Below, in pieces: positions 24,941 to 40,027 of a stretch of DNA of 40,975 bases. The DNA comes from a virus (taxonomy: Duplodnaviria; Caudoviricetes). The notes under the pieces were generated by a model. The model worked only from the letters and a program-made list of their open reading frames with translations, was not told the origin of the DNA and did no database searches. The translations under genes were made by a program, and so were the position numbers. The first letter of the stretch is position 1. Each line of letters begins with the position of its first letter. The stretch spans positions 1 to 40,975 of IMG/VR virus record IMGVR_UViG_3300038679_000061; one strand, 5' to 3'.

Positions 24941-25552
24941 TCACTTTCCGTCTTTTAAAAAGTCAATCAGGTGTTGGAACCGCTGCCGGTCTTCGGCGCA
25001 GGTTCGGGCATTGGTTGCCTGGTTGTCCCAGGCGTCGTCGAGCGTGAGGCCGGCGCTTTCGGCGCAAGCAGCGTCGGCGCTTTCGGAGGCACCAGCAGAG
25101 CCGCAGGCACCGGCTGGCGCATCAACACCGGTGAGCGCGCCATTCCACATGCGGACAGCAGCAAGAGTGAGCACAGGGCCGCTGTCGCCAGCAGCACCAG
25201 GCGCAGGCCGCTTGCCTGGGCCCGGCGCATCGGGCACGGGTGTGTTGCTGCATGGAGCCACAACCACAGGCCCAGGCACAACAAGAGGAGCGCGGCGGCG
25301 AAGATCCAGATACTGGGTGTTGAGGTCGGCATAGCGGGCTTCCTGGTCGAGGTGTTCCTGGAGATAGCTGGCGGCAGCCAGGTCGGCGCGTTTGGTTTCC
25401 TTGGCGATCGCCTTGGATACCGCCTGCTCGGCCTTGGCTTGCTTGGCCTGCCAGGCGTTGTCGGTGGCCGTGTGGCCCCACCAGTAGCCACCGCCCACGA
25501 GGGCCAGGGCTGTGCAGAGCAGGGCCAGCGCGCGCGCGGCAAGGCTGCTCAT
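24941..25552 (-). CDS. Rz: Inner-membrane spanin (Rz-like)
   Basis: N-terminal TM, coiled coil and Cys-containing C-terminus; follows the endolysin. Confidence 0.75.
   Translation of the reverse strand: MSSLAARALALLCTALALVGGGYWWGHTATDNAWQAKQAKAEQAVSKAIAKETKRADLAAASYLQEHLDQEARYADLNTQYLDLRRRAPLVVPGPVVVAPCSNTPVPDAPGPGKRPAPGAAGDSGPVLTLAAVRMWNGALTGVDAPAGACGSAGASESADAACAESAGLTLDDAWDNQATNARTCAEDRQRFQHLIDFLKDGK
24967..25230 (-). CDS. Rz1: Embedded outer-membrane spanin lipoprotein (Rz1-like)
   Basis: Alternative frame inside Rz: MRRAQASGLRLVLLATAALCSLLLLSA-C lipobox and Pro-rich mature part. Confidence 0.7.
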   Translation of the reverse strand: MRRAQASGLRLVLLATAALCSLLLLSACGMARSPVLMRQPVPAALLVPPKAPTLLAPKAPASRSTTPGTTRQPMPEPAPKTGSGSNT

Positions 25553-26112
25553 CGCTGCAGCTCCATGCACTTCTGGTGGCGCTCGGCCTGGCGGTTCCAG
25601 ACGCCGCGGCAAACCTTGTTGCCAGGCGTTGAGCAGTCGAACTCCCATCGGATGGGGCGGCCCTGCGCATCGCGCCGGTTCACCACCCAGCCCGGCCCTT
25701 CTTTGCGCGCGCTGGTCATCTTGCGGTAGTTCAGCAGCGCGTTGCAGGCCTGCGGGTAGTTGCTCGCCAGCAGCTGGCTGCGCATGCCCGATTTCAGCCA
25801 GGCACCCGTGCCGTACTGATAGACGAAGTCCATGTAAAGGTCGTACTCACCCTGGGTCAGGGCCACGCCCGGCAGGCTGTCGCGAAAGATCGCTTCTTCC
25901 TTGCCGATGTGCGCCTGCGCTTTGATGAGGGCGCGCACGGGTGTGGTGGTGTCGCCCATCTTCACGGGCTTGCCGTCTTCGTGCTTCGTGGATCCAAAGC
26001 CCAGGGTGGGCACATCGCCCTGGGTGGGAATCACCGCTGTGGTCGTGTAGTGCTCATGCACTGCTAGACCAACGAACGCGGAGAACGACAGCGACAGGCC
26101 GGCGACCAGCAT
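25549..26112 (-). CDS. Endolysin, GH24 lysozyme with SAR-like N-terminus (start may be TTG 26163)
   Basis: Weakly hydrophobic N-terminal segment followed by an E...D..T catalytic triad (HEHY...GDVPTLGFGST); FVYQYG; CRGVWNRQ. Confidence 0.88.
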   Translation of the reverse strand: MLVAGLSLSFSAFVGLAVHEHYTTTAVIPTQGDVPTLGFGSTKHEDGKPVKMGDTTTPVRALIKAQAHIGKEEAIFRDSLPGVALTQGEYDLYMDFVYQYGTGAWLKSGMRSQLLASNYPQACNALLNYRKMTSARKEGPGWVVNRRDAQGRPIRWEFDCSTPGNKVCRGVWNRQAERHQKCMELQR

Positions 26113-26206
26113 GCGCGGGCTGACGGCACCGCGTAAGGATGAGGGCCGCCTGACAATGGACAATGGTCGCTTCTCACCACCACCATACCCATTGAAAGGG
26201 GCACTC

Positions 26207-26386
26207 ATGAACGAAGCACAGGCCGCAGCCTTAACCGACCAGATCATTGGCAAACTCCTGACGCATCAGGAGAACGCGCTGGGCACGTACCCTTTGAATG
26301 ATGAGTCTCAGGCTCGGTTCGCTGCAAAGAGCATTGCTGCGTTTCGCCTGCAACTGATTGAGGAACTGAAGACGCAACCGCAGTGA
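26207..26386 (+). CDS. Small antisense accessory protein (59 aa)
   Basis: GAAAGGGG RBS before ATG 26207; MNEAQAAALTDQIIGKLL..., helical. Confidence 0.55.
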   Translation: MNEAQAAALTDQIIGKLLTHQENALGTYPLNDESQARFAAKSIAAFRLQLIEELKTQPQ

Positions 26387-26585
26387 CCGCAGCGCGGTAG
26401 ACCCGGCCCGCGTTTTCGCCAAAGGAGTCGGTGGCCGCCATGTCGGCTTTCGACTTCGCCCATTCCTGCGCCGCCGCCAGTCCTACCTGGTGGCGGCGTT
26501 CTTGTTTTCTGTTGACGAAGAAAGCAACGGCGGCAATAGCCGCAACGCTGATGAAGCCGAGGATGAAGGAGGATGTGATGCCCAT
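26244..26585 (-). CDS. Single-TM protein, first gene of the lysis operon (holin/antiholin candidate)
   Basis: N-terminal TM followed by a basic stretch; ATG 7 nt from the late-promoter -10 (leaderless). Confidence 0.5.
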   Translation of the reverse strand: MGITSSFILGFISVAAIAAVAFFVNRKQERRHQVGLAAAQEWAKSKADMAATDSFGENAGRVYRAAVTAVASSVPQSVAGETQQCSLQRTEPETHHSKGTCPARSPDASGVCQ

Positions 26586-26591
26586 GCCGCG

Positions 26592-26643
26592 ACTGTCGTC
26601 GGGAGGGCAGAAACAACTAAGGCCGACATGGGTCGGCCTTAGT
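26592..26643 (-). promoter_or_regulatory. Late promoter 1 (lysis): activator palindrome plus -10 GACAGT; terminator-like for the upstream accessory operon
   Basis: ACTAAGGCCGAC-ATGG-GTCGGCCTTAGT; GACAGT at the same 19-nt spacing. Confidence 0.75.
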
Positions 26644-26663
26644 AGGGGAGGCGAGAGAGGTTT

Positions 26664-27272
26664 CTAAGGTGCCACGGGAGGCTGGGGCGCGGCAATCTTT
26701 GGCGCGGATTCGCGAGGCCCGCGTTCAATGATTCTCGAACCATCGAAACTGTAAAGGTGCATCCAGCAGACCTCCCACCAGTTGAGCGGATAAACCTTCT
26801 GACGGCGTCCGACAGCGATTTCATTTTGACAATGAATCACCAGCGCTGCAAAAGAGGGTGGCTCGCCCGATTCGATCTTCGCCACCTGCGCCTTGAAGTC
26901 GGATAGATGCTCTTGAGTCCACTCTACGCCCACTGCATACATGGCAGCCAAGATCGATTTGAATTGGGCTTTGAGCTGGCCATGCACCCGCGCCCGCTCC
27001 GAAAACCCAAAGACCAGTGGCAGTATGGAAGCAATCGCGGCAATCAGCGCCAGCCACTTCCCCCAGTCCCCATCCTTGCCGGCAATATCGGCAAAAGCGG
27101 ACGTGGCTGCGATTGCCGTCGCGGCCTGCAGCGCACGCTCCATACCGCCGAGAAAGCGCTCACGTTTGGCGTGATACGAGGCAGACAACCGGCAGCGTTC
27201 AAGCAGCTCTTCTTGTTCGTCCCAAAGAAATTTGGCACGGTCGACCAAAGGCGAGCTTTCTGTTGTGGACAT
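26664..27272 (-). CDS. SLATT-like two-TM effector protein
   Basis: SASYH...RERF, then two hydrophobic helices, then FSERARVH, the usual SLATT layout. Confidence 0.6.
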   Translation of the reverse strand: MSTTESSPLVDRAKFLWDEQEELLERCRLSASYHAKRERFLGGMERALQAATAIAATSAFADIAGKDGDWGKWLALIAAIASILPLVFGFSERARVHGQLKAQFKSILAAMYAVGVEWTQEHLSDFKAQVAKIESGEPPSFAALVIHCQNEIAVGRRQKVYPLNWWEVCWMHLYSFDGSRIIERGPRESAPKIAAPQPPVAP

Positions 27273-27280
27273 GAGGACTC

Positions 27281-27475
27281 CTACTTCTTTGGCGGGGGAG
27301 GCCTGGTCTCCCCACGCGGTGCTATCGGGTCTATCGTAGTCTTGCTGTCACTTGTTGGTGAGCGCCAGTTTTCAAGTGCGGGGGTGCGACCCGACTCGCG
27401 TTGAGGCACCTGACTCGGTTCCCTTCGTCCGCTAGAGCTGCGGTTTTTACCTTGGTCATTCTGATTTGTGGCCAT
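27281..27475 (-). CDS. Small disordered peptide (64 aa) ending PPPPKK
   Basis: AAGGAAAG RBS; tightly spaced between its neighbours. Confidence 0.55.
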   Translation of the reverse strand: MATNQNDQGKNRSSSGRREPSQVPQRESGRTPALENWRSPTSDSKTTIDPIAPRGETRPPPPKK

Positions 27476-27487
27476 GTCATGCTTTCC

Positions 27488-28132
27488 TTAAAGTGTCTTT
27501 CGTGGGCCATCAACGCCCTGCATCCATTGGGCTGGCAGCATGCGCACAGCAGGAACGCGCTCCATCCAGACATCGATCTTTCGCCGGCCCGTGTTCCTCA
27601 ACTTTTCCCGAGCGTTGAAAACGCACACATTGGGCAACCAGGCAACAGCTTGCTCCAAGGGCTTACCCACATGATAGCCAAGCCATTTTTCTATGGTGTT
27701 GAGGTCGCCCACCCCACCTTGAAATCCGCTGGTCACAGCAACCAAGCTCACCCCCAGCGTCTCAACTGCGGAAACTACCTCCGGAAAAGCGACACGCGCG
27801 GTTTGAGGGAAAGTCAGCAACTCAGGGACGCCATGGAATGGAAACTCAGGCATGTGAGACTTGGTGCCCCAGGCTCGCGTCAGAAAGGCGTGCAGCGGCG
27901 GCAGCTCGGGGCCAAAGCCAATCTCTGCATAGAAAACCGCAGAGAAGTGGTCGCGTAGCGAGTAAATGACCATGTGCTTTTTGCTGGCTGAAGACAGCTT
28001 GGTCAACGATGTTTCCATCGGTTTGACCTGGTATTTCAGCAGTCCATCCTTGCCAGCGTAGTAGTGCTTTGAAACGCTGGCCACCAGTTGGTGGGCATGG
28101 TTGGGGTGATTGCTTCTGTAATGCTGCATCAC
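27488..28132 (-). CDS. Stand-alone, apparently inactive DDE transposase catalytic-core homolog
   Basis: Colinear motifs HPNHAHQLVAS..YY, DHFSAVFYAE, FL.RAW, PFHGVPELL, LGVSL, FNA...TGRRK..W match HPNHVWQIDAS-type Mu-like phage transposases; acidic triad missing. Confidence 0.6.
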   Translation of the reverse strand: MMQHYRSNHPNHAHQLVASVSKHYYAGKDGLLKYQVKPMETSLTKLSSASKKHMVIYSLRDHFSAVFYAEIGFGPELPPLHAFLTRAWGTKSHMPEFPFHGVPELLTFPQTARVAFPEVVSAVETLGVSLVAVTSGFQGGVGDLNTIEKWLGYHVGKPLEQAVAWLPNVCVFNAREKLRNTGRRKIDVWMERVPAVRMLPAQWMQGVDGPRKTL

Positions 28133-28144
28133 GATTTGACGACC

Positions 28145-28726
28145 TCACCGACCGCACTTCCGTGCTTCGCCAATCTGCTTCAGCCGCTCAACCCTTTCGG
28201 CCTCGCTGAGCCGTATGCTGCTGGCGCTGGTTTCCATGGCCCTGATCTCCATCGGCGTCGGGCAATTCATGGACACGGTACGGGTTGGCTCCACGCCTGG
28301 CCGGTGCTGAATGCTCGTGACGATGCCGTCTTCTGTGTAGACGTACCACGACTGACGGGGCCGGTCATAGATGATCTGATCTTTGAGCCGACCACTGTAG
28401 TTGTTCGCGTTCACCTTGGTCGGCGCACCCATGGCCTTGTCCAGCTCCATGCGCGTCATGCCAACAAGCGGTTCACCGCTGGCGATGGCCGCATTGACTT
28501 TGCTTCGCCATTCGACGGTAGCGATCTCCATCTTCGTTCTTGCCGCTGATTCGGATGTGCTGGCGTTCGAGTGCCCGGAGGCGGGACGCACGTTCAGCGT
28601 CTCCCCGTTGCCGGGACAAGCAGCGTCCTGAAACACAACCTGACCGTCGATCGTGCATTTGTTGATGGCCCACACGGGAGCCCCTGAAATGATCGCCAGC
28701 GCGATCATCACCGTCTTGATCTTCAT
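28145..28726 (-). CDS. Exported DUF4124-like protein with SmpA/BamE-like C-terminal region
   Basis: Signal peptide (PVWA), INKCTIDGQVVFQDAACP, VGMTRMELDKAMGAP. Confidence 0.75.
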   Translation of the reverse strand: MKIKTVMIALAIISGAPVWAINKCTIDGQVVFQDAACPGNGETLNVRPASGHSNASTSESAARTKMEIATVEWRSKVNAAIASGEPLVGMTRMELDKAMGAPTKVNANNYSGRLKDQIIYDRPRQSWYVYTEDGIVTSIQHRPGVEPTRTVSMNCPTPMEIRAMETSASSIRLSEAERVERLKQIGEARKCGR

Positions 28727-28758
28727 TTTTCTCCCTTCCTACCGCTACCTGCCGCCGA

Positions 28759-29295
28759 TCACCTCGTGATTGAAACGACCTGTCCTTGATTGGTGTAAAC
28801 GTACCGGATCGGCGCGCTCACACCGTACACGTACTGACGCCGGACGCCATATGCCGTCTCAGTTTCATTGATCTTGGAGTACGACCACTCCCGGGCAAAC
28901 CTCGTACAAGCCAGAAAGTTCGATTCGGCCATGCCAACAACGGGTTGAGCAAGCACGGCACCTGGGCCGCACGTCACACGGTCGGATCGGATGGAATCTT
29001 CGATCGACTTCCGGTGCGCCTCTCGCCGATCAAGGGCGGCCTGTGCGCGTTGTCGATTCTCTGGCTGCTCCATCTGGGCATTGAGCGATCGCGCGACCTC
29101 GGCGGAACTCATGACGTTTTTGGGTTGTGCCATGGCCTGAGTCGCGGCTTTGCCGGGGGACTGCGTCGCGTTCGGGCACGCAGCGTCCTGGAACACTACT
29201 GAGCCATCCGCCCCGACGCACTTGTTTGCAGCCCAAGCCGAGGACCACCCCGAACAGGCCAGCACGAGAACTACCACCTTGATCTTCATGTCCAC
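28759..29295 (-). CDS. Exported DUF4124-like protein (paralog)
   Basis: Signal peptide (SAWA), NKCVGADGSVVFQDAACP, INETETAYGVRRQYVY. Confidence 0.75.
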   Translation of the reverse strand: MDMKIKVVVLVLACSGWSSAWAANKCVGADGSVVFQDAACPNATQSPGKAATQAMAQPKNVMSSAEVARSLNAQMEQPENRQRAQAALDRREAHRKSIEDSIRSDRVTCGPGAVLAQPVVGMAESNFLACTRFAREWSYSKINETETAYGVRRQYVYGVSAPIRYVYTNQGQVVSITR

Positions 29296-29307
29296 TCCCC
29301 TCAGACG

Positions 29308-30030
29308 CTACTGAAACACCACACCGGCCCAACGCACACGACCCAACACCTCGAAGTCTCGCCCGCTGTCTTCCTCCAGCGGGATGTCAAAAGGCAAGTA
29401 TTCGGTGTTGGCGCTGCTGGCGCGCAGCAGCTTGCCCGGTAGGCGCTGCAGCGTCTTGATCATCAGGCCGCCATCGAGCCGGATGGCATGCAGGCCTTCG
29501 GTCGACACCTCTCGCGCCTTCCGGTCCAACAAAGATGTGTCCTTAGAGTGCAACACCGGCTCCATGGATCTGCCCACGATGGTCACCAGTGCCAGTTCGT
29601 TGTGTTGTATCCCCAACTCGCCCCGGATGAACTCCACGGCGAATGGACGCATTGCAATCACTTTCTCAATTTCGCTGAAGGCACCGTTGCCCGCCGAAAA
29701 CTGCACATCGAATTGCGGGACGTAGACATAGTCGCCGGCCTCCACGGCGTAGATGCTGCGCTCCACCTTGGTGGAGGTTTCGACACCCGTCAACAGCCAT
29801 TCGGCCGAGACGTTCAGCTCAGCGGCCAGCCGAACCAAGGTGAAGGCGTCGGGAACGGAAACGCCCCGCTCGAATTTCCCCAGGGTGTTGACGTGCAGCG
29901 CCAGTCGAGCTGCCAGCTCTTCGCGCGGCATCCGACCCCGCGCCTGTCGAATGCGATCGCCCAGTGCGGCGGCATAGGCATCACGCCCGCGCTCATCCTG
30001 CGTCTCTTCCGCACTTTTTAATGTGTCCAT
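29308..30030 (-). CDS. cI: Phage repressor, XRE HTH plus S24 peptidase (CI/LexA-like)
   Basis: HTH (LAARLALHVNTLGKFERG); SAG cleavage site; GRSMEP Ser and IKTL Lys catalytic dyad. Confidence 0.92.
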   Translation of the reverse strand: MDTLKSAEETQDERGRDAYAAALGDRIRQARGRMPREELAARLALHVNTLGKFERGVSVPDAFTLVRLAAELNVSAEWLLTGVETSTKVERSIYAVEAGDYVYVPQFDVQFSAGNGAFSEIEKVIAMRPFAVEFIRGELGIQHNELALVTIVGRSMEPVLHSKDTSLLDRKAREVSTEGLHAIRLDGGLMIKTLQRLPGKLLRASSANTEYLPFDIPLEEDSGRDFEVLGRVRWAGVVFQ

Positions 30031-30043
30031 AGACACATTAAAA
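30016..30043. promoter_or_regulatory. Operator palindrome over the repressor start codon
   Basis: Perfect 12-4-12 inverted repeat TTTTAATGTGTC-CATA-GACACATTAAAA. Confidence 0.7.
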
Positions 30044-30177
30044 CATGTACGACTCAAGGTGCAAACCTAAAAAGTGGGTGTCTCCTTCCGATGGGGGATG
30101 CATCCGTGTGCGCCGAGAGACAAAAAAATGTGTTCCATGAGTTGCTGGCGCACTTAATTGTGTTTATGATCATCACC

Positions 30178-30483
30178 ATGGACACACAAAAAGGTATACA
30201 GCCAACTGACTGGCACCCTGCCGATGTAAAGGCCGCACTCGAAAAGAGAGGTGTAAGCCTTCGTCAGCTCGCAAAGAGTCATGGCTACTCACATTTCCAA
30301 CGCGTATTGACCACCCACTGGTGGGCTGCCGAGCAGATCGTTGCTGCCGCCTTGGAGACCAAGCCCGAAGCGATCTGGCCCAGTAGGTATGAACGGCCGC
30401 GAACCAATGCGAAGAAGCGCACCAGCAAGATCACGCTCACGCGTTCGGGTCGCATTCGTCTGATGGTGGAGGAACGGACATGA
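30178..30483 (+). CDS. ner: Ner-like transcriptional regulator
   Basis: DWHPADVKAALEKRG...PEAIWPSRY signature. Confidence 0.92.
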   Translation: MDTQKGIQPTDWHPADVKAALEKRGVSLRQLAKSHGYSHFQRVLTTHWWAAEQIVAAALETKPEAIWPSRYERPRTNAKKRTSKITLTRSGRIRLMVEERT

Positions 30484-32696
30484 CCTGGCTCACCGCTCGC
30501 GAGCTGGCTGGCTTGCCTGGCATGCCAACTGCTGAGTTCCGCACCCGCGAGAAGCTTCAACGCTTGGGCATACCCGGCAGACCTCGGCTTGGCCGCGAGG
30601 GTGGCGGCGGCACTGAATACGACTGCAGCGCACTGCCCGAAGAAACCCGCGCCGCCATCGCAGCGCGAAAGATCACCCAGGCGGGCAGCACCGTGCTCGC
30701 CCTGGTGGAGTCCGCGCCCGTCCGCTCCTTTGTGCCTCCAACGCTGCCAGAGCCGCGGCCCGGCCAGCTGGCGCCCGTGCCCTCTCCATCGCGTCGCCCA
30801 CCCAGCCAGGCCGACAAGTCGGTAGCCGATGCCCGCGTGCACCTGGTCAACCTGGTGCAGACGCTGGTGCCGTTGCACGGCCTCAAGCGGTCGTGTGTAC
30901 TGCTCGCCGCACAGCTCGTGACGGGTGAGGCCGGTGCCGAGGTGCTGGCCATTGCCCGCACGGCCAACCAGCGCGCTCGCGGCGACTCGGTCAGCGCCCG
31001 CACGCTGGAGCGCTGGATCGGTGCCCATCGCGAAAGCGGCTGGTGGGGCCTGCTGCCGGTAGCGGTTGAGGTGGCCGCCACACCCGAGCGCATGGAGCAA
31101 GACGTAGCGGCCGTGCTCGGCCTGTACCACAGCCGCAACCCCGAGTTCCGCAAGCTGACCCAGGCCGCCAAGAAGGTCACGCGCGCCATGGGCCGCGAGT
31201 TCGACACCTGGGAGGCGCTTTACGGTCGCGCCCGCCGCGCCCTGGACAAGCTGGGCCAGTCACACGAAGCGAACGTGGCACTTATCAAGTCCCGCCACTC
31301 CGGCTCAGAGCGCGACGTGAAGCTGCCGTTTAAACGGCGCGACGCCAGCATGCTGGCCCCGCTGGACGTGTGGGTGATGGACGGCCACAGCTTCAAAGCC
31401 AAGGTGCGCCACCCGGACCACGGCGCCCCGTTCGCACCCGAGCTCACGCTGGCGCTCGACTGGTCTTGCCGCAAGATCATGGGTTGGTCGGTCTCGCTCT
31501 CAGAAAACGTGTTCGCGGTGGGCGACGCGCTGCGCCACGGCGTGGGCCAGTACGGCAAACCGGCCCTCCTGTACACCGACAACGGTGGCGGTGAAACCGG
31601 CAAACCCATGGACTGCCCGATTGACGGCTTCGCCGCTCGCCTGGGCATCGACCACCGCACGGGTATCCCGGGCAAGCCACAAGGCCGCGGTGTGATCGAA
31701 CGCTCCTGGCAGACCCACGCGATCAACTGTGCCCGCCAGTTCGGCAGCTACCAGGGCAGCGACGTGGACGGCGGCGAGTTCCGCAAGGTGGCCGCCGAGC
31801 TGGCAAAAGAGCAGCGCGCCGTGAAGCGCGCCCAGGAAACGGGCACGGTGGTTCGCCTGTCCACCAAGTGCCCCACCTGGGCCCAGTTCGTCGAGGCGGT
31901 CGAACGCATGGTCGCCGAATACAACGGCACCCACCGCCACCGCATGCTGCCCAAGCGCGCCGACGGCAAGCACATGACGCCCGATGAGGCCTGGGCCGCC
32001 AAGTTCGACGCGAGCCTGCAGCACCTGCCCACCGCGGGCGAGCTGCGCGAGCTGTTCATGCCAGCGGTGCTGCGCACGGCACGCCGAGGCGAGGTGCAGT
32101 TCTTCAACCAGACCTATTCGGCCCCCGAGCTGATGCGCCGCGATGTGGAAGGCTGCGAGGTCAGCGTGCGCTACGACATCCACGACCCGAGCTGGGTGCG
32201 CATCTACACGCTCGACGGTCAGTTCGTGTGCGACGCGCGCTTCGCCGCCAACCGCATCGACGCCATGCCCAAGGCCGTGGTGCAGATGGCCCGCGAAAAG
32301 CGCGTGGCCGCCACCGTCAAGTTGCGCCAGCAACAGATAGAGACCGCCTTGCGCGAGCTGGACTCGCCCGTCCAGGCCGACACCGTTTTCCTGCCGGAGC
32401 CCATTGCCCCCGTGGTGCTGGGTTCCACCCTGGAGGCGAAAACCTCCTCCCTCCCTGATTCCTCCATGGGCGAGGCCGCGCAAGCGGACTCGGGCAGGCC
32501 TTTCTTTGACACCCCGGGCGCGCGCTACGAGTGGCTGATGCGCCACCGCGATGAGTGGACGGGCGTGGATCAGGAGTGGATCGCCCAGTACGTCGAGTGC
32601 GACAGCTACGAGCAGCTGCGCGAGTACTACGAGGGGCGAGGCCTGGGGTGGGGAACGGCCGCCGAAGAGCAGCCGGGTTTTAAGAGTGCCCTGTGA
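30480..32696 (+). CDS. MuA: Mu-type DDE transposase A
   Basis: N-terminal Mu HTH (WLTARELAGLPGMP); DGH, YTDNGGG and GVIERSW DDE triad; C-terminal VRYDIHD. Confidence 0.95.
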   Translation: MTWLTARELAGLPGMPTAEFRTREKLQRLGIPGRPRLGREGGGGTEYDCSALPEETRAAIAARKITQAGSTVLALVESAPVRSFVPPTLPEPRPGQLAPVPSPSRRPPSQADKSVADARVHLVNLVQTLVPLHGLKRSCVLLAAQLVTGEAGAEVLAIARTANQRARGDSVSARTLERWIGAHRESGWWGLLPVAVEVAATPERMEQDVAAVLGLYHSRNPEFRKLTQAAKKVTRAMGREFDTWEALYGRARRALDKLGQSHEANVALIKSRHSGSERDVKLPFKRRDASMLAPLDVWVMDGHSFKAKVRHPDHGAPFAPELTLALDWSCRKIMGWSVSLSENVFAVGDALRHGVGQYGKPALLYTDNGGGETGKPMDCPIDGFAARLGIDHRTGIPGKPQGRGVIERSWQTHAINCARQFGSYQGSDVDGGEFRKVAAELAKEQRAVKRAQETGTVVRLSTKCPTWAQFVEAVERMVAEYNGTHRHRMLPKRADGKHMTPDEAWAAKFDASLQHLPTAGELRELFMPAVLRTARRGEVQFFNQTYSAPELMRRDVEGCEVSVRYDIHDPSWVRIYTLDGQFVCDARFAANRIDAMPKAVVQMAREKRVAATVKLRQQQIETALRELDSPVQADTVFLPEPIAPVVLGSTLEAKTSSLPDSSMGEAAQADSGRPFFDTPGARYEWLMRHRDEWTGVDQEWIAQYVECDSYEQLREYYEGRGLGWGTAAEEQPGFKSAL

Positions 32697-32714
32697 CGGT
32701 TGCAGCCGTCACAG
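32691..32714. promoter_or_regulatory. Hairpin at the A-B junction
   Basis: CTGTGACGG-TTGCAG-CCGTCACAG overlapping the transposase stop codon. Confidence 0.5.
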
Positions 32715-32766
32715 AGCGTGCCTGAGTTGATGTGTGTATCGAGACCCAAACGAGAAGGAATGTAGC

Positions 32767-33528
32767 GTGAAAAAAGGATTTGTTCAAACTGAGAACTTCC
32801 GCCGCCTGCGGGAAGCGGAGAAGCTGGTAGACCAGCGCGGAGCCATCGAGGCCAGCCTGGTGCTGGTGCGCGGCGTGTTCGGCATCGGCAAGTCGATGCT
32901 GACCGAGCGCTGGGCCAGCGACGCCGGGCACATCTTCATCCGTGCCAAGGAGACCTGGACCAAGCACAGCATGCTGCGCGACATCGCCGCCAAGATGGGC
33001 TTGCCAACGGACGGCAATTCTTCCCAGGTGCAGGACCGCATCATCGGCCGCCTGGCGGTCTCCATGACGCCGCTGATCATCGACGAGGCCGACCACCTGA
33101 TCCCCACCTCGCGGGTCACACGCGGCAGCCAGCGCGTGGCGCCGATGCTGGAGGCGGTGCGCGACGTCACCGACATCACCGGCGTGATGTGCTTCCTGGT
33201 CGGCATGCAGGACTTTCCCACGATGGTGCTGCAGTTCGACCACATCGCCAGCCGCGTGGCGCACATCGTCAACCTGGAGCGCCTGTCCATCGAAGACGTG
33301 CAGGCAACGGTCAAGGCCAAGGCCGAGATCGCCATGGCGCCCGAGGTGGTCACCGCCATCCACACCCAGGCCAAGGGCCGCATGCGCTGGGTGCTCGGCG
33401 CGATCACCAACATTGAGGCCTGGGCAAAAGCCAACAGCTGGGCACGTGTTGAAGCGGCTCACATCAAGGGTCGCTCGCTCTGCACCGAGTTCACCAGCCA
33501 GAGCGCCACCAGCGGGAAAGGCCTCTGA
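32767..33528 (+). CDS. MuB: MuB-like AAA ATPase (transposition target capture)
   Basis: GTG start after an AAGGAA RBS; GVFGIGKS Walker A; LIIDEAD Walker B; LVGM; IASRV. Confidence 0.9.
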   Translation: MKKGFVQTENFRRLREAEKLVDQRGAIEASLVLVRGVFGIGKSMLTERWASDAGHIFIRAKETWTKHSMLRDIAAKMGLPTDGNSSQVQDRIIGRLAVSMTPLIIDEADHLIPTSRVTRGSQRVAPMLEAVRDVTDITGVMCFLVGMQDFPTMVLQFDHIASRVAHIVNLERLSIEDVQATVKAKAEIAMAPEVVTAIHTQAKGRMRWVLGAITNIEAWAKANSWARVEAAHIKGRSLCTEFTSQSATSGKGL

Positions 33529-34160
33529 TGAAACACGGCCAACCGTGGTTCGTGATCGCCACGCTGCGCGGCATCGGGCGCCACGTCAAGACCACCGATC
33601 AGCCTTTCACGGTTAAAGACGTGGTGGGCTGGGATGCCGATCTGAAGGGCGCCGCACCCAAGGTGCGCGTGGCGTTGGACAAGCTGCTGTTTCACAAGCT
33701 GGTGCAGCGCCATGTGCCCGAGCGCGAGTCCATCCTGCGGCCCTTGGTGCAGGTTGAACACTGGAAGCTCACAGACAAGGGCCTGGCCACCTGTCGCTCG
33801 GTGCTGCGCGAGCAGCCAAGGGCGAAGGCCCCCGATCCGAACGCCTTGTCCACGCGTTTGTGGTCGCTGCTGCGGGTGCGCAAGATGCTGACGGCCGAGG
33901 AGGGCGCCGCCACCCTGATCGATGCGGGAACGCGCGACTTTGCTGCCGCACAGCACCAGATCGCCGGGTACCTGCGAGCCTGGGCCAAAGGGGCTCCGGA
34001 GCTGGTCCAGGTGAGCGCCAAGACCGTCAACGGCGCCAAGCGCTACGTGATGGTCAAGGAAGGGGGGGCACACCCTCCGCCCACCAAAGCCACCGGCGAG
34101 CCTGTCCTGCCCGCGCCCAAGCTGCTCACGCCACGCAACCGCACCGGGGAGGCCGCTTGA
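33528..34160 (+). CDS. Early protein, probable winged-helix DNA-binding
   Basis: Coupled to B; LWSLLRVRK..T motif. Confidence 0.7.
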   Translation: MKHGQPWFVIATLRGIGRHVKTTDQPFTVKDVVGWDADLKGAAPKVRVALDKLLFHKLVQRHVPERESILRPLVQVEHWKLTDKGLATCRSVLREQPRAKAPDPNALSTRLWSLLRVRKMLTAEEGAATLIDAGTRDFAAAQHQIAGYLRAWAKGAPELVQVSAKTVNGAKRYVMVKEGGAHPPPTKATGEPVLPAPKLLTPRNRTGEAA

Positions 34161-34177
34161 ACCCGACACGCCCCTAC

Positions 34178-34618
34178 ATGCAAGAGCCTTGGTTCGTGTT
34201 GCTCACCGAGCGCTGCCAAGGCGCCGTGCGCGCCCGCATTGCCGAGCAACTGGGCATCAGCTCCACGGCGCTGTCCATGGTGATCAACGCCACCGGTCCG
34301 TATGGCACCGGCGCTGCCAGCACCGACCGCATCGCTGAGCGCGTGGTGCACACCTTCGGCCGCTACGCCTGCCCCCACCTCACGGCCGAAGCCGGGGGAG
34401 AGGAGTGCGTGATCACCGCCGACCAGTGCCGTGCTTATGCACACCGTCCACCCCCCACGGGCAGCCCGCGCGCCATGCAGCACTGGCAGGCCTGTCGGCA
34501 GTGCTCACACCGCGAGGCCAGCGTGCCGCCCGTCGAGCGAATCCCGGTTCCTCGCAAGTCTTCGCGCTCGCCCGATCCATCTTCTTCACCCCAGGAGATT
34601 CCCCATGACGTTGTTTAA
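34178..34618 (+). CDS. HTH protein with Cys-rich C-terminus
   Basis: IAEQLGISSTALSMVIN HTH; CPHL...C...WQACRQC. Confidence 0.75.
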   Translation: MQEPWFVLLTERCQGAVRARIAEQLGISSTALSMVINATGPYGTGAASTDRIAERVVHTFGRYACPHLTAEAGGEECVITADQCRAYAHRPPPTGSPRAMQHWQACRQCSHREASVPPVERIPVPRKSSRSPDPSSSPQEIPHDVV

Positions 34619-34832
34619 ATGCCTCGCTCAAGGTGGCCCCGTTGGCCTCGCGCATGCGCTGCGCGAAGCGTGGATCGCCCACCGTATCCGCCGCGTTGCC
34701 CTGTTCCTTGATCAAGAGCGCGACCTGCACCGTGAGCACATGGCTCAGCTGCACGCCGAGCTGCGCCGCCTGGCGCAGCGCCAGGTCAGTGCAACCCAGC
34801 GCGCCGCTGCTTTCTGGAGGGCGCTGTCATGA
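34605..34832 (+). CDS. Hypothetical early protein
   Basis: AGGAG RBS; coupled. Confidence 0.6.
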   Translation: MTLFKCLAQGGPVGLAHALREAWIAHRIRRVALFLDQERDLHREHMAQLHAELRRLAQRQVSATQRAAAFWRALS

Positions 34833-35050
34833 GCGCCCTGGTGATCTCCCTGGAGCTGCCCATGGCCGAGGCCGACTACCGCCGCCCGAAGCTTTCATGG
34901 GTCAAGCGCCGAGCGCGCCGCATCCAGCGCTTTTTCAAGGTCTCCCGCAGCATCGCGATCGCCGAGGCCATCGACGACTACCACGCGTTCGCACAGATGC
35001 ACCGCGCCCGTCTTCTCACCTTGATTCAAGGAGGCCGCAGCCATGGCTAA
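34829..35050 (+). CDS. Hypothetical early protein
   Basis: ATGA coupling; GGAGG RBS. Confidence 0.6.
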   Translation: MSALVISLELPMAEADYRRPKLSWVKRRARRIQRFFKVSRSIAIAEAIDDYHAFAQMHRARLLTLIQGGRSHG

Positions 35051-35468
35051 AGGCATCACCCATTCCTGCGCCAACATCTGGCGCGCCATCGCCCGGGCGG
35101 GTGGGTGGCACTGGCGGCAGCGTGTCGCGAGCGACTGGGACGGCATCTACGCCGAGAGCGAGATTCAGGAGAGCCTGGAAACCCTGCACCGCGGCGGCTT
35201 CCTGGAACTCGGCGAGTCCCGACGCCACGGCAACGTGTACGCCTACACGGTCAAGTGCCACCAGCTGCCCGGTGAGACGCTGCTGCCGGTCACGGCCGCA
35301 GATGGTGAGCCCGATGCCCTCACGACGGTGGCCGCTCCCCCGCGCAACGACGTGATGAACACCGTCTACACGCCGCCCCAGCCCATCTACCGGGCCGGCG
35401 CCCTGGACTACCAGGCATGCCCCAGCCTGCACATGGGCAAGCGCCGCCCCTTTCGGAGCGAAACATGA
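35043..35468 (+). CDS. Hypothetical early protein (wHTH-like; RAGALDYQACPS motif)
   Basis: AGGAGG RBS; coupled. Confidence 0.65.
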   Translation: MAKGITHSCANIWRAIARAGGWHWRQRVASDWDGIYAESEIQESLETLHRGGFLELGESRRHGNVYAYTVKCHQLPGETLLPVTAADGEPDALTTVAAPPRNDVMNTVYTPPQPIYRAGALDYQACPSLHMGKRRPFRSET

Positions 35469-35701
35469 CATTCATGGAGCTGCAAGACAACGCCCAGCAG
35501 CTGGCCCGCCTGCGCATCGTGCTGCTGGCCCTGCTACCCAAGACCGGCGAGCCTCGCACGGTCTCCGAGCTGGCCGCCTCGGCCTACACAGACAAGCAGT
35601 CGGTGTCCGACGCGCTGTTCGACGACTACATGGACGGCCGGATCGGCTTCGATGTGGTGACCGATTCCTTCCATGACAAACGCCAAGGGAGCGCGCTGTG
35701 A
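35465..35701 (+). CDS. Hypothetical early protein
   Basis: ATGA coupling; GGAG RBS. Confidence 0.6.
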   Translation: MTFMELQDNAQQLARLRIVLLALLPKTGEPRTVSELAASAYTDKQSVSDALFDDYMDGRIGFDVVTDSFHDKRQGSAL

Positions 35702-35946
35702 GCCTTACACCAGCCGAACTGGCTGCGGATGACGCAGCGCTCAAGGTACTGACCAACCGCCTGGCCGAGATGGCCGAAGCCGCGCCAAGCCATCGCCTGA
35801 TGTTGCTCGCGCTGCTGGCCACCTACCAGGCCGTGGCGAGCGTCCACCCATGCTGCACGCGCACAGCTGCCGAGGCCGCACTGCAGGTGGGCGGCCGGCT
35901 ACTGATCTCCACCCTGGACGCATTGCCGCGTTCCAACCTTCACTGA
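35698..35946 (+). CDS. Hypothetical early protein
   Basis: GTGA coupling; GGGAG RBS. Confidence 0.6.
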   Translation: MSLTPAELAADDAALKVLTNRLAEMAEAAPSHRLMLLALLATYQAVASVHPCCTRTAAEAALQVGGRLLISTLDALPRSNLH

Positions 35947-35963
35947 AACCAAAGGAGCCACTC

Positions 35964-36581
35964 ATGGCCGAAAAAAACACCATCCCCGCCGGCTACTGGC
36001 AAGACGCCAACGGCGCCCTGATCCCCACCGCCAAGATCAAGGAAATCGACAAAGACCGCCACACCACGGTGGTGCAACTCGCGGAAGCGGCAAAGGACGT
36101 GAGCGCATCCCTGCTCGGCTTCAAGCTGCAGGCCATGCAGACCATCCAGGAGTTCATCACCCGCAGCCTGGAGCAATACGAGGTCAAGACCGGCGGAGAC
36201 AAGGGCAACGTCACGCTGGTCAGCTTCGACGGGCGCTACAAGATCACCCGCCAGGTGCAGGACTCCATCGTGTTCGACGAACGCCTGCAAGCGGCCAAGG
36301 CTCTGATCGACGAGTGCATCCACGTCTGGGCCAAGGGCAGCAACAGCAACATCAAGGTGCTGGTGAACGACGCCTTCCAGGTGGACAAGGCCGGCGCAGT
36401 CAACACCTCGCGCGTGCTCGGCCTGCGCCGCCTCGCCATAGACGACCCCACCTGGACCCGCGCCATGGCCGCGATCAGCGACAGCATGCGTGTGTCCAGC
36501 AGTAAGGCCTACGTGCGCTTCTACGAGCGCGACGAAGCGGGCGAGTACCAGGCGATCAACCTGGATGTGGCGGGGGTGTGA
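35964..36581 (+). CDS. DUF3164 family Mu-like phage protein
   Basis: GYWQDANGALIP, KGNVTLVSFDG, FDERLQAAKALIDEC, YVRFYER motifs. Confidence 0.88.
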   Translation: MAEKNTIPAGYWQDANGALIPTAKIKEIDKDRHTTVVQLAEAAKDVSASLLGFKLQAMQTIQEFITRSLEQYEVKTGGDKGNVTLVSFDGRYKITRQVQDSIVFDERLQAAKALIDECIHVWAKGSNSNIKVLVNDAFQVDKAGAVNTSRVLGLRRLAIDDPTWTRAMAAISDSMRVSSSKAYVRFYERDEAGEYQAINLDVAGV

Positions 36582-37303
36582 TGAGCAAGTCCAGAGGCCT
36601 CCTCCCGCCCCGCGAGTTCTGGCCGCCCCATCACCTTGAGGTGCTGCGCCGCTTCTACGCCGACCTTCGGACCGATGACATCGCAGCTCTGCTGGGGAAA
36701 AGCACTTCGCGGGTCTATGCCAAGGCCCAGGCGATGGGCCTGAAAAAGAGTGCCGAATTTCAGGCCAGCGTCCACAGCGGGCGTGTGCAGCGCGGGCAGC
36801 AAGACCCGCGCATGCTCGGTACACGCTTCCAAAAAGGTCTTGTTCCCTGGAACAAGGGCCTCAAGGGCCTGACCCACGAGGGCAGCAAGGCCACCCAGTT
36901 CAAGAAGGGCCAGATGTCCGGCGCCGCCCAGCACAACTATGTGCCGGTTGGTAGTTATCGCATCAGCACCGATGGCAACCTGGAACAGAAGCTGACCGAC
37001 GATCCGTCCATCGTGCCACCGCTTCGGTGGACACCTGTCGCCCGGATCGTCTGGGAGCGCGACAAAGGGCCAATCCCGGCCGGCCACCTGGTGGTGTTCA
37101 AGAGCGGTCAGAAGACGGCCGAGCTTGATCAGATCACCGTCGACCGCCTGGACTGCATCACCCGCGCCGAGAACGCGCGCCGCAACCACTGGGCGTTTCG
37201 CCATCCCGAGCTGGCCGCCATCGTGCCGCTCAAGGGCGCGATAACGCGCCAGGTCAACCGTATCAACCGCGCGGCCCGAGAGGCCGAGGAGTCACGAGCA
37301 TGA
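36581..37303 (+). CDS. HNH-family protein (degenerate HNH_3-like)
   Basis: RFQKGLVPWNKG and TQFKKG repeats; VWERDKGPIPAGHLVVFK...LDCITRAENARRN. Confidence 0.75.
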   Translation: MSKSRGLLPPREFWPPHHLEVLRRFYADLRTDDIAALLGKSTSRVYAKAQAMGLKKSAEFQASVHSGRVQRGQQDPRMLGTRFQKGLVPWNKGLKGLTHEGSKATQFKKGQMSGAAQHNYVPVGSYRISTDGNLEQKLTDDPSIVPPLRWTPVARIVWERDKGPIPAGHLVVFKSGQKTAELDQITVDRLDCITRAENARRNHWAFRHPELAAIVPLKGAITRQVNRINRAAREAEESRA

Positions 37304-37638
37304 GCAACGTCGAATCACCAGCCACCCCGCACATCACCGAGCTGCAGGCGGTGCTGATGGACACACTGAAAAGCCTGGGCAGCATGGGCCGCGGGCCGGA
37401 GAAACTCGACGTCGAGCAGATCAAGGCCCAGGTCAGCATCGCGAATTCCATGAAGGGCGTGGCCGACACGCTGGTGGACACCGCCCGCGTGGCGCTGGAG
37501 TACTTGAAAGCCACTGGGGCTGATCGGTCGAACTTCCTGGAGGGCCGGCCCGGAAAGGTCGGCCTGCCGGCGCCGTCCACAACGCCCACGCCACATAATC
37601 CGTTTCCGGTGTCTGTGTCGCACAGGCTGGGGGAGTGA
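37300..37638 (+). CDS. Hypothetical protein (HNH-associated)
   Basis: ATGA coupling; VADTLVDTARV..EY motif. Confidence 0.65.
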   Translation: MSNVESPATPHITELQAVLMDTLKSLGSMGRGPEKLDVEQIKAQVSIANSMKGVADTLVDTARVALEYLKATGADRSNFLEGRPGKVGLPAPSTTPTPHNPFPVSVSHRLGE

Positions 37639-37641
37639 GCC

Positions 37642-38343
37642 ATGACCCGCGACGACGCCCTCAAGAAAATCAAGAAGTGCCTGGCGCTCTCCCGCAGCGC
37701 CAACGAACACGAAGCCGCCGCCGCGCTGCGCCATGCCCAGAAGCTCATGCAAGTCTTCAGTCTGGCCGAGGAGGACATTTCCCTGGCCGACGTGAGCGAG
37801 GTGCGTGTCAAGGCGCGATCCACCGCGGCCAACCGCTGGGAACTCGCGCTGGTGCACCTCGTGGCCGACGCCTTCGGCTGCGAGACCTTCGGAAGCCTGA
37901 ACGGCGCCTACAACGCCGCTGGCAACTTCGTCCGCACGCGGCACTGGGTGTTCGTCGGCATCGACACCGCGCCCGAGGTGGCTGGCTATGCAGCCGAAGT
38001 GCTGATCCGCCAGTGCGCCACCGCCCGCCTGGCACACATTGCCAAACAGCCCAAGAACTGCAAGCCCATCACCAAGACCGCACGCGGCGATGCGTTTGCC
38101 GTGGGCTGGGTGGCCGGCGTGGAAGCGAAGGTCGAAGCGTTCGCCCAGTCAGGCAAGAACGAAACCCTGCTGCTGGCCTACATGCAGCGCGAGCACCCGG
38201 ACCTGGCCGAAGGCAAGGTGCGCGACACCACGAAGGCGCGACGCGTGGACCACGGCCACATTGCCGCCGGCTACCGGGCGGGCAAAGCCGCCGAGCTGCA
38301 CCGTGGTGTGGGTGGAAACGAAGAGCGGAGGTTGATCGCATGA
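37642..38343 (+). CDS. DUF2786 domain protein
   Basis: KIKKCLALSRSANEHEAAAALRHAQKLM signature. Confidence 0.85.
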   Translation: MTRDDALKKIKKCLALSRSANEHEAAAALRHAQKLMQVFSLAEEDISLADVSEVRVKARSTAANRWELALVHLVADAFGCETFGSLNGAYNAAGNFVRTRHWVFVGIDTAPEVAGYAAEVLIRQCATARLAHIAKQPKNCKPITKTARGDAFAVGWVAGVEAKVEAFAQSGKNETLLLAYMQREHPDLAEGKVRDTTKARRVDHGHIAAGYRAGKAAELHRGVGGNEERRLIA

Positions 38344-38582
38344 GCCGTCCCGTCCTACTCCAGATCAACCAGTCAGGCGCCTGGCGAACGGGCCTTGACT
38401 TCGACGCCAGCGGATTGCCCGATGAGTTCATGCACCACATCGACCAGGTGCTGCGTCTGGCCTACGGCCCAAAGACGACGGCCCGCATCGTGATGACACG
38501 TGAGGGTGCCAACGGGAAGGTTGTGGCCACGAACGATGTGCTGTTGCGCTGGTCGCGCGAGAAAGGCTGGGTCAAGGTATGA
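38340..38582 (+). CDS. Hypothetical protein
   Basis: GGAGG RBS; ATGA coupling; LQINQSGAWR motif. Confidence 0.6.
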   Translation: MSRPVLLQINQSGAWRTGLDFDASGLPDEFMHHIDQVLRLAYGPKTTARIVMTREGANGKVVATNDVLLRWSREKGWVKV

Positions 38583-38872
38583 GCCGCGCACCCACCAAGA
38601 CCGTCCAGATGGCCTGCCTGCAGATCGGCTATCAGCGCCTCCTGCTGCCAGCGGACAAGGCCATGAAAGTGGTCGAAGCCCTGCAGCACGCGGTGCAGGC
38701 CGAGATCGAGTTCAAAGGCCACAGGGAGCACTACCAGGTGCAGGAGGAATCCCTGCGCGTCGAGTTTTCGCTGGTGAGTCAAAGCCAGATCAGCATGCCG
38801 CACGGCGAGCCGTTCCCGAAGCCGGCCACTCGGCCCGCCTTGCCGCCCGCACGCCCGAGGTTGCCGCGATGA
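38579..38872 (+). CDS. Hypothetical protein
   Basis: ATGA coupling at both ends. Confidence 0.65.
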   Translation: MSRAPTKTVQMACLQIGYQRLLLPADKAMKVVEALQHAVQAEIEFKGHREHYQVQEESLRVEFSLVSQSQISMPHGEPFPKPATRPALPPARPRLPR

Positions 38873-39201
38873 GCGATATCCAGATCATCGTTCTCTGTGT
38901 GGTGACTGCTGGCGCTGCGGGTGCACTTGTCGGCATGCTGGTCGCTTCCACCCTGGCCGCGACCATCGTCAAACACTGGCTGCCGGAGCTCCCTGAGTTC
39001 ATCGTGCTCAAGTCGCTCACCCTGAAAACAACCATCACTGATGAGGATGATGGTCTAAGCGTCCACTCCGGCGCAACCTGGTCTGCCAGCGGAGTGACTG
39101 GGCAATTCGTCGAGCAGTGGCTGGAGCGCCGCAACCTTGTGATGTCCCCGAAGGGGAAAGACTTCACTGTGGGCACGAAGACGAAGAAGGGCGGTGCCTG
39201 A
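38869..39201 (+). CDS. Membrane protein with N-terminal TM
   Basis: IQIIVLCVVTAGAAGALVGMLVA hydrophobic segment; GAGG RBS. Confidence 0.6.
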   Translation: MSDIQIIVLCVVTAGAAGALVGMLVASTLAATIVKHWLPELPEFIVLKSLTLKTTITDEDDGLSVHSGATWSASGVTGQFVEQWLERRNLVMSPKGKDFTVGTKTKKGGA

Positions 39202-39506
39202 TGCCCGTCTACCGCCTCGCACTCGGAATGGTCCACATGCGTGGTACACGCCTGCCCGCGCCGTGTGCTGCACGCATCCTGATCGACGACCAGGACGCCC
39301 CATGCATGGCCCCCAGCGCCTACCTCTGCGACGGCCTACCGCCGCCACTCCGCCCGGGCGACCACCATGGCACCGGTACCTGTGACGCCCCCCTGTGCGA
39401 AGCCCACGCACGCCAGGTCGGGAAAAACCGCCACCTGTGCCCGGCCTGCCACCTCTCCCAGCGCAACGCCGAGCCGCAGCGCAGCCTCTTCACCTCCATC
39501 GTTTAA
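39201..39506 (+). CDS. Cys/His-rich (zinc-binding) protein
   Basis: LCD...TCDAPLCEAH...HLCPAC. Confidence 0.7.
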   Translation: MPVYRLALGMVHMRGTRLPAPCAARILIDDQDAPCMAPSAYLCDGLPPPLRPGDHHGTGTCDAPLCEAHARQVGKNRHLCPACHLSQRNAEPQRSLFTSIV

Positions 39507-39511
39507 ACGCC

Positions 39512-40027
39512 ATGGCCACCACCACCCGCCGAAACTTCACGGCCCACACCAACCAGGCCAACGCCGACGCCCAGCGCAAGCGCGAGCTCGGCCATATCCA
39601 CCAGGGCAAGGCCGCCCTGACCTGGAGCGATGACGACTACCGGTTCCACCTGTCGGACCTCACCGGTAAGACCAGCGCCGCCGATCTGGACGCAACAGGC
39701 CGCGCCAAAGTGCTCGCCCGCATGGCCGCCGCCGGCTACAAGCCCAAGGCCAGCACCTTCAAACCCTTCGACCAGGCCGCCAAGATCAAGTGGCTGTGGA
39801 AGAAGATCGCCGCCGCCGGTGGCCTGCGCGACGCTAGCGAATCCGCACTGCTCACGTTCGTCGGTCGCCACACCGGCAAGGGCGTCGCAGACCTCAAATT
39901 CCTGCCCACAGCCGACGCCTCCAAGGTAATCGAAGCCCTCAAGTCCATGCTCACCCGCGCGGAGCGGGCTGTTCGAACAGGGGAGGCGCCCCAACACCTG
40001 GACTCCGGGCAGGTCACCCTGAAATGA
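39512..40027 (+). CDS. gemA: GemA-like (DUF1018) regulatory protein
   Basis: IHQGKAAL.WSDDDYR...TGKTSAADL, KIKWLW and ASKVIEALKSM motifs. Confidence 0.88.
   Translation: MATTTRRNFTAHTNQANADAQRKRELGHIHQGKAALTWSDDDYRFHLSDLTGKTSAADLDATGRAKVLARMAAAGYKPKASTFKPFDQAAKIKWLWKKIAAAGGLRDASESALLTFVGRHTGKGVADLKFLPTADASKVIEALKSMLTRAERAVRTGEAPQHLDSGQVTLK

Follow-up and report, generated by a model that had tools for sequence, protein, structure and literature searches.

The window, by which we mean the whole analysed stretch of 40,975 bases, is a Mu-like phage record that is 84% complete. The minus strand carries the terminase, portal and tail genes, and a D12-class adenine methyltransferase is encoded at the phage end (225-998, minus strand). 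The plus strand holds an early operon with a Ner-like regulator, the transposase, B, GemA and Mor; it starts with the Ner-like gene (30091..30483, plus strand, Pfam/PHROG), which is followed by the resident Mu/D3112-type transposase (30480..32696, plus strand). In divergent orientation, a CI-type repressor with HTH_3 and peptidase S24 domains (29308..30057, Pfam/PHROG) is the first gene of a head-to-tail run on the minus strand, which continues with two DUF4124-like cargo genes (28759..29295 and 28145..28726), the gene under study (27488..28132), a 64-aa low-complexity ORF of no family (27281..27475) and a SLATT-like membrane protein (26664..27272; weak NCBIfam matches to SLATT_1/4, phrog_11791 with E 2e-20). 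The gene under study, a stand-alone RNase H core that lacks the DDE residues and appears to derive from a B3/Beetrevirus-type transposase, is separated by 12 bp from the neighbour on either side. The run ends at a 12-pair hairpin with a T tract (26616..26643, minus strand), the likely terminator of the repressor/cargo operon; seven such sites were found versus 4.6 expected in shuffled sequences, and this one fits by position. The gene thus lies in the operon downstream of the repressor, as a preliminary description of this DNA had stated. No sigma-70 promoter above chance was detected in 26000-30500.

The endolysin (25549..26253, minus strand, Pfam) forms the other border of a variable slot, in which GC drops to 0.56-0.58 compared with 0.65-0.70 around it; GC3 is 0.64 for the dead core and 0.85-0.91 for the transposase, terminase and portal genes. 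The dead core is absent from all 19 related Mu-like loci. The ten closest (L100-L109) span the repressor-endolysin slot with differing cargo, which makes it a hotspot for cargo in this group of Mu-like phages; by labels given from sequence reading, L109 has an HTH-metallopeptidase-like gene there, and L107 a nucleoid-associated-like gene paired with a membrane protein. The tandem DUF4124-like genes of the window (28145-29295, minus strand) have hydrophobic N termini. The upstream one, with a Pfam E of 0.0017 that is under the cut-off, also occurs in two loci without the dead core (L103/L104), in whose slot one of the pair has a 47% homolog. The 64-aa ORF and the SLATT-like gene behind it (26664-27475, minus strand) may form a two-gene defence cargo of their own within the operon. 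Directly upstream of the endolysin, two ORFs overlap in antisense (26111-26386, plus strand; 26244-26585, minus strand), and both have counterparts in L101. A SLATT-like gene next to the dead core was found in none of the other retrieved loci, and a functional link of the dead core to its SLATT-like or DUF4124-like neighbours was dropped since the pairing is absent elsewhere.

Contigs from an RNA library (one run of one groundwater study) are identical to positions 26864-27306, 27306-28052 and 28064-29713. They are weakly consistent with lysogenic expression of the cargo stretch, because the run was found using this very stretch and may hold DNA. For the same reasons, and because only contigs from one study are at hand, the little or no contig cover of the early operon (~30005-39999) and of most late genes in this run carries no evidential weight. 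Another 1.3-kb contig (4049-5345, depth 28, 3 differences) covers a tail-fibre-like ORF (3966-5147) and may stem from a related phage or mark a second expressed region.

The ORF is intact and encodes 214 aa from a GTG or 213 aa from the next ATG (28129). All motifs listed in the preliminary description were found in the same order, and its assignment to the core of HPNH-class Mu-like transposases was borne out by profile alignments and structure matches. A profile built from 36 close homologs aligned with the transposase of Pseudomonas phage PM105 (Beetrevirus; hhalign P=97.75, E=1.3e-12, 197 columns) and with that of Microcystis phage Mae-JY22 (P=98.5, E=2.7e-15). Searching phage records with the dead core by tblastn yielded seven weak matches, all to proteins of ~590 aa, six of which are annotated as transposases of Pseudomonas phages such as PM105; we take these PM105-like enzymes to be B3-type. 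The resident transposase of the window, phrog_310/D3112-like according to PHROG, is indeed of a different subfamily, and aligning it with the dead-core profile gave no match (P=0.28). In line with these alignments, the AF2 model (pLDDT 92.3) matched RNase H/integrase folds, namely the cores of TnsB, IstA and integrases (Foldseek E 2e-7; VIA Z 16.8, rmsd 2.8 over 184 residues), and domain II-alpha of MuA, Tn7-like TnsB and IS21 IstA shares the RNase H fold with Z 15-17. The best structural neighbours in the Atlas are phage DDE transposases (TM 0.77-0.81), and the Atlas cluster holding the protein has 127 members labelled only "hypothetical protein". At E up to 0.1, the window protein had no match in Pfam, NCBIfam or PADLOC; the sole PHROG match was phrog_2610, a weak one (E 0.047).

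The alignment with PM105 covers residues 143-353 of 592, which agrees with the previously noted absence of the DNA-binding and C-terminal domains: typical B3/Beetrevirus-type transposases have ~560-600 aa with end-binding and C-terminal domains, whereas the dead core has 214 aa and neither of them. What it shares with B3-type transposase A (PM105 YP_009188523.1; E. coli WP_096974514.1) is a colinear core of ~200 residues, the hairpin insertion and structural motifs. In contrast to these enzymes, it lacks D/D/E and both flanking domains, is not followed by an AAA+ B gene, and is transcribed with a repressor or located on unrelated elements. In the window, its neighbours are DUF4124-like, the small ORF and the SLATT-like gene, and no B gene stands beside it; the same holds for all 80 loci retrieved (0/80), where B occurs only beside the active transposase in L009, L010 and L050. 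Because triad, flanking domains and B gene all fail, we place the dead core outside the B3-type transposases, yet as derived from them.

All three catalytic acids were expected to be substituted, and the alignment bears this out: the D, D and E columns are occupied by V16, P108 and G141 (213-aa numbering). For the third acid the loss was correctly noted, but not the exact residue, since the Glu column holds the glycine just before "DLN" and not the later residue of GDLN; an Asp stands one residue after the lost Glu. The alignment comprises 239 distinct domains, taken from 261 of at least 150 aa that start by profile position 20 (shorter fragments excluded), and consists of 214 dead domains, 24 full-length transposases and a truncated transposase (L098), which was grouped with the latter. 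The triad is intact in 24/24 full-length transposases and in L098. Among the 214 dead domains an acid occupies columns 1, 2 and 3 in 0, 1 and 2 rows, and not a single homolog keeps even two. In 99/214 an acid lies no more than one residue from the third column; at or adjacent to the first column, 0/214 have one.

N10, H13, D60, G100, P102, W87 and W188 are common to the dead family and the active transposases. D60 is invariant, and D60 and H61 are conserved equally in the active enzymes and are therefore probably structural. New conservation arose in the beta1-beta2 hairpin (S20 94%, H22 84%, Q34 93%, with K36 retained) and elsewhere (E69 89%, F136 93%), and the loop preceding the old E helix, P-G-N in transposases, became S-G-F (134-136). 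The conserved basic beta-hairpin comprises residues 20-36 of the window protein; the segment that starts at the first catalytic position and includes the hairpin has a mean net charge of +3.4 compared with +0.5 in transposases, and the family has a median pI of 9.0. In active transposases, the hairpin itself is probably a point of contact with target DNA. In TnsB, core domain II-alpha touches the transposon end and the target DNA at the junction, while the stability of the tetramer relies on helix III-alpha and recruitment on the C-terminal hook (PMC9371665). The dead family retains the DNA-contacting core without the parts that stabilise or recruit the tetramer. Compared with MuA, TnsB and IstA, it is predicted to be inactive and lacks the tetramer-stabilising and ATPase-contacting domains described there (PMC9371665). 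Judging from charge and ancestry, the dead core may bind DNA.

To gain an overview of the family, 1.84 billion representative sequences were searched with the profile, resulting in 567 hits at E<=0.001, 237 at 1e-10 and 89 at 1e-30; full-length transposases appear in the tail, and the listing covered the best 150 of the 567. DNA scans added 4 viral, 24 genome and 64 metagenome loci. The short form accounts for 18/24 genome loci, hosted by Gamma- and Alphaproteobacteria, Bacteroidota, Acidobacteriota and WOR-3, and full transposases for 6/24; short forms are also located on Leptospira, Cupriavidus and Pseudomonas plasmids. A scan of genome contigs with the single protein as query found nothing. 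Most dead members (183/214) have at most 260 aa, with a median of 212 aa, and the domain is N-terminal in 210/214. The 22/214 exceeding 400 aa mostly add TPR/ST7-like repeats (4/4 in one set, 14/32 in the scanned set), with sources including Nitrospiraceae and Bacillota; a homolog search of longer proteins missed these fusions and gave only six full-length transposases. Of the fusion members (P0124, P0131, P0133, P0135; L066-L068, L089), some have an extra unclassified C-terminal region of 230 aa, and the C-terminal part of the 734-aa fusions matched only TPR look-alikes (<0.9). An ATPase-like tail of P0119 was dropped because it had no significant match to B protein, Pfam or NCBIfam. No toxic effector domain was found in stand-alone members and no conserved gene partner across loci.

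Phylogenetic analysis of 41 dead and 25 active rows separated the two groups by a split with 100/100 support and a branch length of 1.18, and in the tree of 214 and 25 rows a long branch again sets the dead domains apart (SH 0.85). As the trees are unrooted, the origin from active enzymes is deduced from the general occurrence of DDE in this fold. NG86 dN/dS was 0.048-0.278 in every homolog pair with dS 0.2-1.5, with no sign of neutral decay; the window gene has no close DNA pair. The single branch, the loss of the triad and these dN/dS values indicate an old domestication and not decay, in agreement with the preliminary description, which had called the gene intact and domesticated. Decay into a functionless transposase fragment, for which the loss of catalytic residues and flanking domains would speak, has a negligible probability, as it is contradicted by dN/dS, the uniform length, the new invariant residues and the well-folded model.

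Most of the 80 retrieved loci (a redundant set, 44 of at least 8 kb) are not Mu-like. Carriers include conjugative or mobilisable elements (L021, L022, L025, L037), plasmids, chromosomal islands and non-Mu prophages (L007, L008, L086). Only L009, L010 and L050, which represent one E. coli prophage, have a Mu-like transposase, B or portal gene nearby. It is a conserved, unnamed family on ICEs, plasmids and unrelated prophages across several phyla. One further record retrieved, Microcystis phage Mae-JY22 (L002, PP438414.1), encodes an intact-DDE B3-type transposase and a Gam protein, has most genes annotated as hypothetical, and looks like a transposable phage.

Neighbours of the dead core include Hachiman, Gabija, AbiE, restriction enzymes, TIR, HEPN, HNH, Fic, RelE/ParE and type II toxin-antitoxin genes. 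By hand count in 25 loci, Pfam defence or toxin-antitoxin types made up 18/89 near genes versus 5/98 far genes (from these loci, at a distance of 6 kb or more; p=0.002), with a Pfam list drawn up post hoc from the near genes, three near hits from one gene family and four unscanned near genes counted as misses. PADLOC hits above 100 bits, a line set afterwards, were found in 14/162 near and 2/98 far genes (p=0.03; one hit is a sigma factor), and all PADLOC hits at E<=1e-8 in 19/162 and 9/98 (p=0.68), thus without enrichment. Gene calls at these loci came from a simple custom picker, and many loci lie among housekeeping genes (L016, L023, L028, L069). The association with defence genes is therefore modest, test-dependent and suggestive. 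Within one Bacteroidales sub-branch, on ICEs as well as in prophages, a gene for a GHKL-ATPase/BbrUII-like nuclease of 650-665 aa directly adjoins the dead core or overlaps with it (L025 9986-16247; L077, L080-L082, L086); next comes a TrlF/Ppl-like ATPase in L025 and Gabija in L080. A general two-gene system with this gene was rejected because the pairing is limited to that sub-branch.

The reading we prefer, tentatively and at slightly less than even confidence, is that a dead B3-type core, kept by purifying selection as mobile cargo, protects its carrier or host from phages or other mobile elements by binding DNA and not by cutting it. It builds on what was established here: the fold, the D/D/E loss, the single branch, purifying selection, the loss of flanking domains, the cargo slot and the spread over element types. 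The scattered, partner-less and low-frequency spread (1/401 Bacteroidales genomes; 27/5426 complete E. coli genomes) is the cargo pattern of defence. The same features, a variable low-GC slot, defence neighbours and patchy spread, are found for single-gene defence factors of prophage and ICE hotspots (PADLOC PD and PDC), but no PADLOC model fits the window protein or 16 other members (no match at E up to 1e-8 for the latter). From its place in the repressor operon, the dead core would be made in the lysogen. The more basic beta1-beta2 hairpin and the S-G-F loop, rebuilt above the former active site, could then grip DNA ends or bent or branched DNA, using a grip inherited from the core of the ancestor, and binding to replication or recombination intermediates of an invader would block them. 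TPR-fused members may instead report the recognition of such intermediates onward. The target would not necessarily be a transposable phage. The earlier proposal of a lysogenic defence borne by a prophage thus stands as far as the repressor-operon cargo slot and a probably defensive role are concerned, but its aim at a different Mu-like clade is not supported.

A more specific version, which we regard as doubtful, would make the protein the first anti-transposition immunity protein in bacteria. Here, the catalysis-free DDE core would capture the ends of transposons or the intermediates of strand transfer, or else act as a poison of the transposase, and would thereby block Mu-like replicative transposition and DDE insertions into the carrier, with TPR fusions coupling recognition to signalling.

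Among the alternatives, a non-defensive role as a DNA- or protein-binding factor of lysogenic conversion or regulation that benefits the carrier is unlikely. The basic surface, the repressor-operon or HTH-adjacent placement in the window, L003, L009 and L013 and the missing enrichment in the unfiltered PADLOC test would all fit. A precedent is TldR, described as a nuclease-dead TnpB that acts as a prophage repressor (10.1101/2023.11.30.569447). TldR likewise is a transposon enzyme domesticated through loss of catalytic acids and found on temperate phages, but it is RNA-guided with a RuvC fold, in contrast to the RNase H-type DDE core described here. A regulator of this kind would have to act without a sequence-specific DNA-binding domain, and both the frequent defence neighbours and the scattered, partner-less, rare spread resemble defence cargo.

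Rather unlikely is a new enzyme or toxin, a nuclease or abortive-infection effector with an active site rebuilt from S20, H22, Q34, D60, H61, E69 or the Asp beside the lost Glu. Cargo of one gene requires an effector, D60 is invariant, and S20, H22, Q34 and E69 are conserved to 84-94% and new compared with transposases. The acid within one residue of the third position also fits, but the Asp after the lost Glu is missing in over half of the homologs, no member has an acid at or beside the first position, and the D60/H61 pair is shared with active transposases.

The preliminary description had proposed a dominant-negative subunit that poisons the transpososomes of heteroimmune transposable phages, here those of B3-type, and this we consider quite improbable. 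The idea has attractive sides: the nearest relatives are B3-type transposases, many surface and core residues are retained, and both Mu-like carriers use the repressor operon, so that lysogens would produce the protein and induction would shut it off. The Tn5/IS50 inhibitor, a truncated transposase that keeps the C-terminal part and is made from the transposase gene, acts by forming heterodimers. This inhibitor protein is reported to come from its transposase gene (PMC2632911), and like the dead core it is a transposase derivative with non-catalytic action; the dead core differs in being a separate, long-diverged gene that is usually far from a cognate transposase. It also lacks the end-binding domains, II-beta, helix III-alpha and the C-terminal hook, which assemble or recruit MuA and TnsB tetramers (PMC9371665); a core-core contact would still be conceivable. 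A complex prediction with residues 60-470 of a B3-type transposase scored 0.00 and was uninformative either way.

In E. coli, B3-type transposases are common (639/5426 complete genomes, 708 places), which would suit the decoy idea, and the homolog WP_000522931.1 occurs in 27/5426, one copy each. In 27/27 carriers the gene lies in a B3-type (HPNH-class) prophage, in the same slot after the repressor and 3 kb from the prophage's own B3-type transposase, so the host prophage is itself of the class that was to be poisoned. A second or third B3-type transposase, which must sit on elements without the dead core because the latter occurs once per genome, was found in 6/27 carriers versus at most 62/612 non-carriers (p=0.06, pointing away from exclusion; four of the six carriers are near-identical strains). 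Carriers are thus not depleted of rival elements; with clonal carriers and an unclear order of arrival, this means that no exclusion was seen, rather than that exclusion was disproved. Against a rival-phage target also stands that Mu-like genes lie near the dead core in only one prophage (three loci) of the 80 loci. Finally, a Bacteroidota sub-branch is under strong selection, yet full-length B3-type transposases were found in 0/401 Bacteroidales genomes compared with three clear and three distant cases in 401 Gammaproteobacteria (p=0.25 and 0.03), a weak contrast since full-length transposase and dead gene (1/401 of those Bacteroidales) are both rare. Apart from this question, the B3-type Mu-like prophages present in ~12% of complete E. 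coli genomes have a varying post-repressor slot (e.g. L127 4536-7597), holding a Flk-like gene, the dead core and DUF2441, or elsewhere an 'ABC transporter ATPase', adenine methylase and nucleoid-associated genes; it is likely an unexplored defence hotspot.

That the protein, like an inhibitor, restrains transposition of its own carrier and so keeps the prophage from jumping in lysogeny is highly improbable. The E. coli gene does lie 3 kb from a homologous active transposase, but the two proteins are only 23% identical and distant on the tree, and ~96% of E. coli genomes with a B3-type transposase lack the dead core (27/639 have it). Moreover, the resident transposase of the window is unrelated, and in 15/15 carrier genomes searched the sole match to the transposase profile was the dead gene itself, with no B3-type transposase present.

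We found no report of a widespread stand-alone dead DDE core in the literature covered, which did not extend to bioRxiv supplements and most subscription journals. The DefensePredictor text and 10 supplements held nothing on the family, and WP_000522931.1 is absent from the supplements. In the accessible part of a review of mobile-gene recruitment in prokaryotes, transposases are mentioned only for Cas1 (PMC8987985). The dead-core family is thus apparently undescribed, being absent from the literature searched and from four family libraries.

Bacterial domestication of dead transposon enzymes is known for TnpB, and the dead DDE core is a further case. If the family is defensive, it would be a new single-gene system made from a phage's own replication enzyme, and would represent a class of genes that searches for new systems may filter out because they look like parts of mobile elements; one defence-discovery pipeline reportedly left out integrase-like communities (10.1101/2025.01.08.631966). 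Should it prove to block DDE transposition, the family would offer a natural inhibitor of enzymes by which phages and transposons spread. With a homolog in E. coli prophages (WP_000522931.1), all of these readings are testable.
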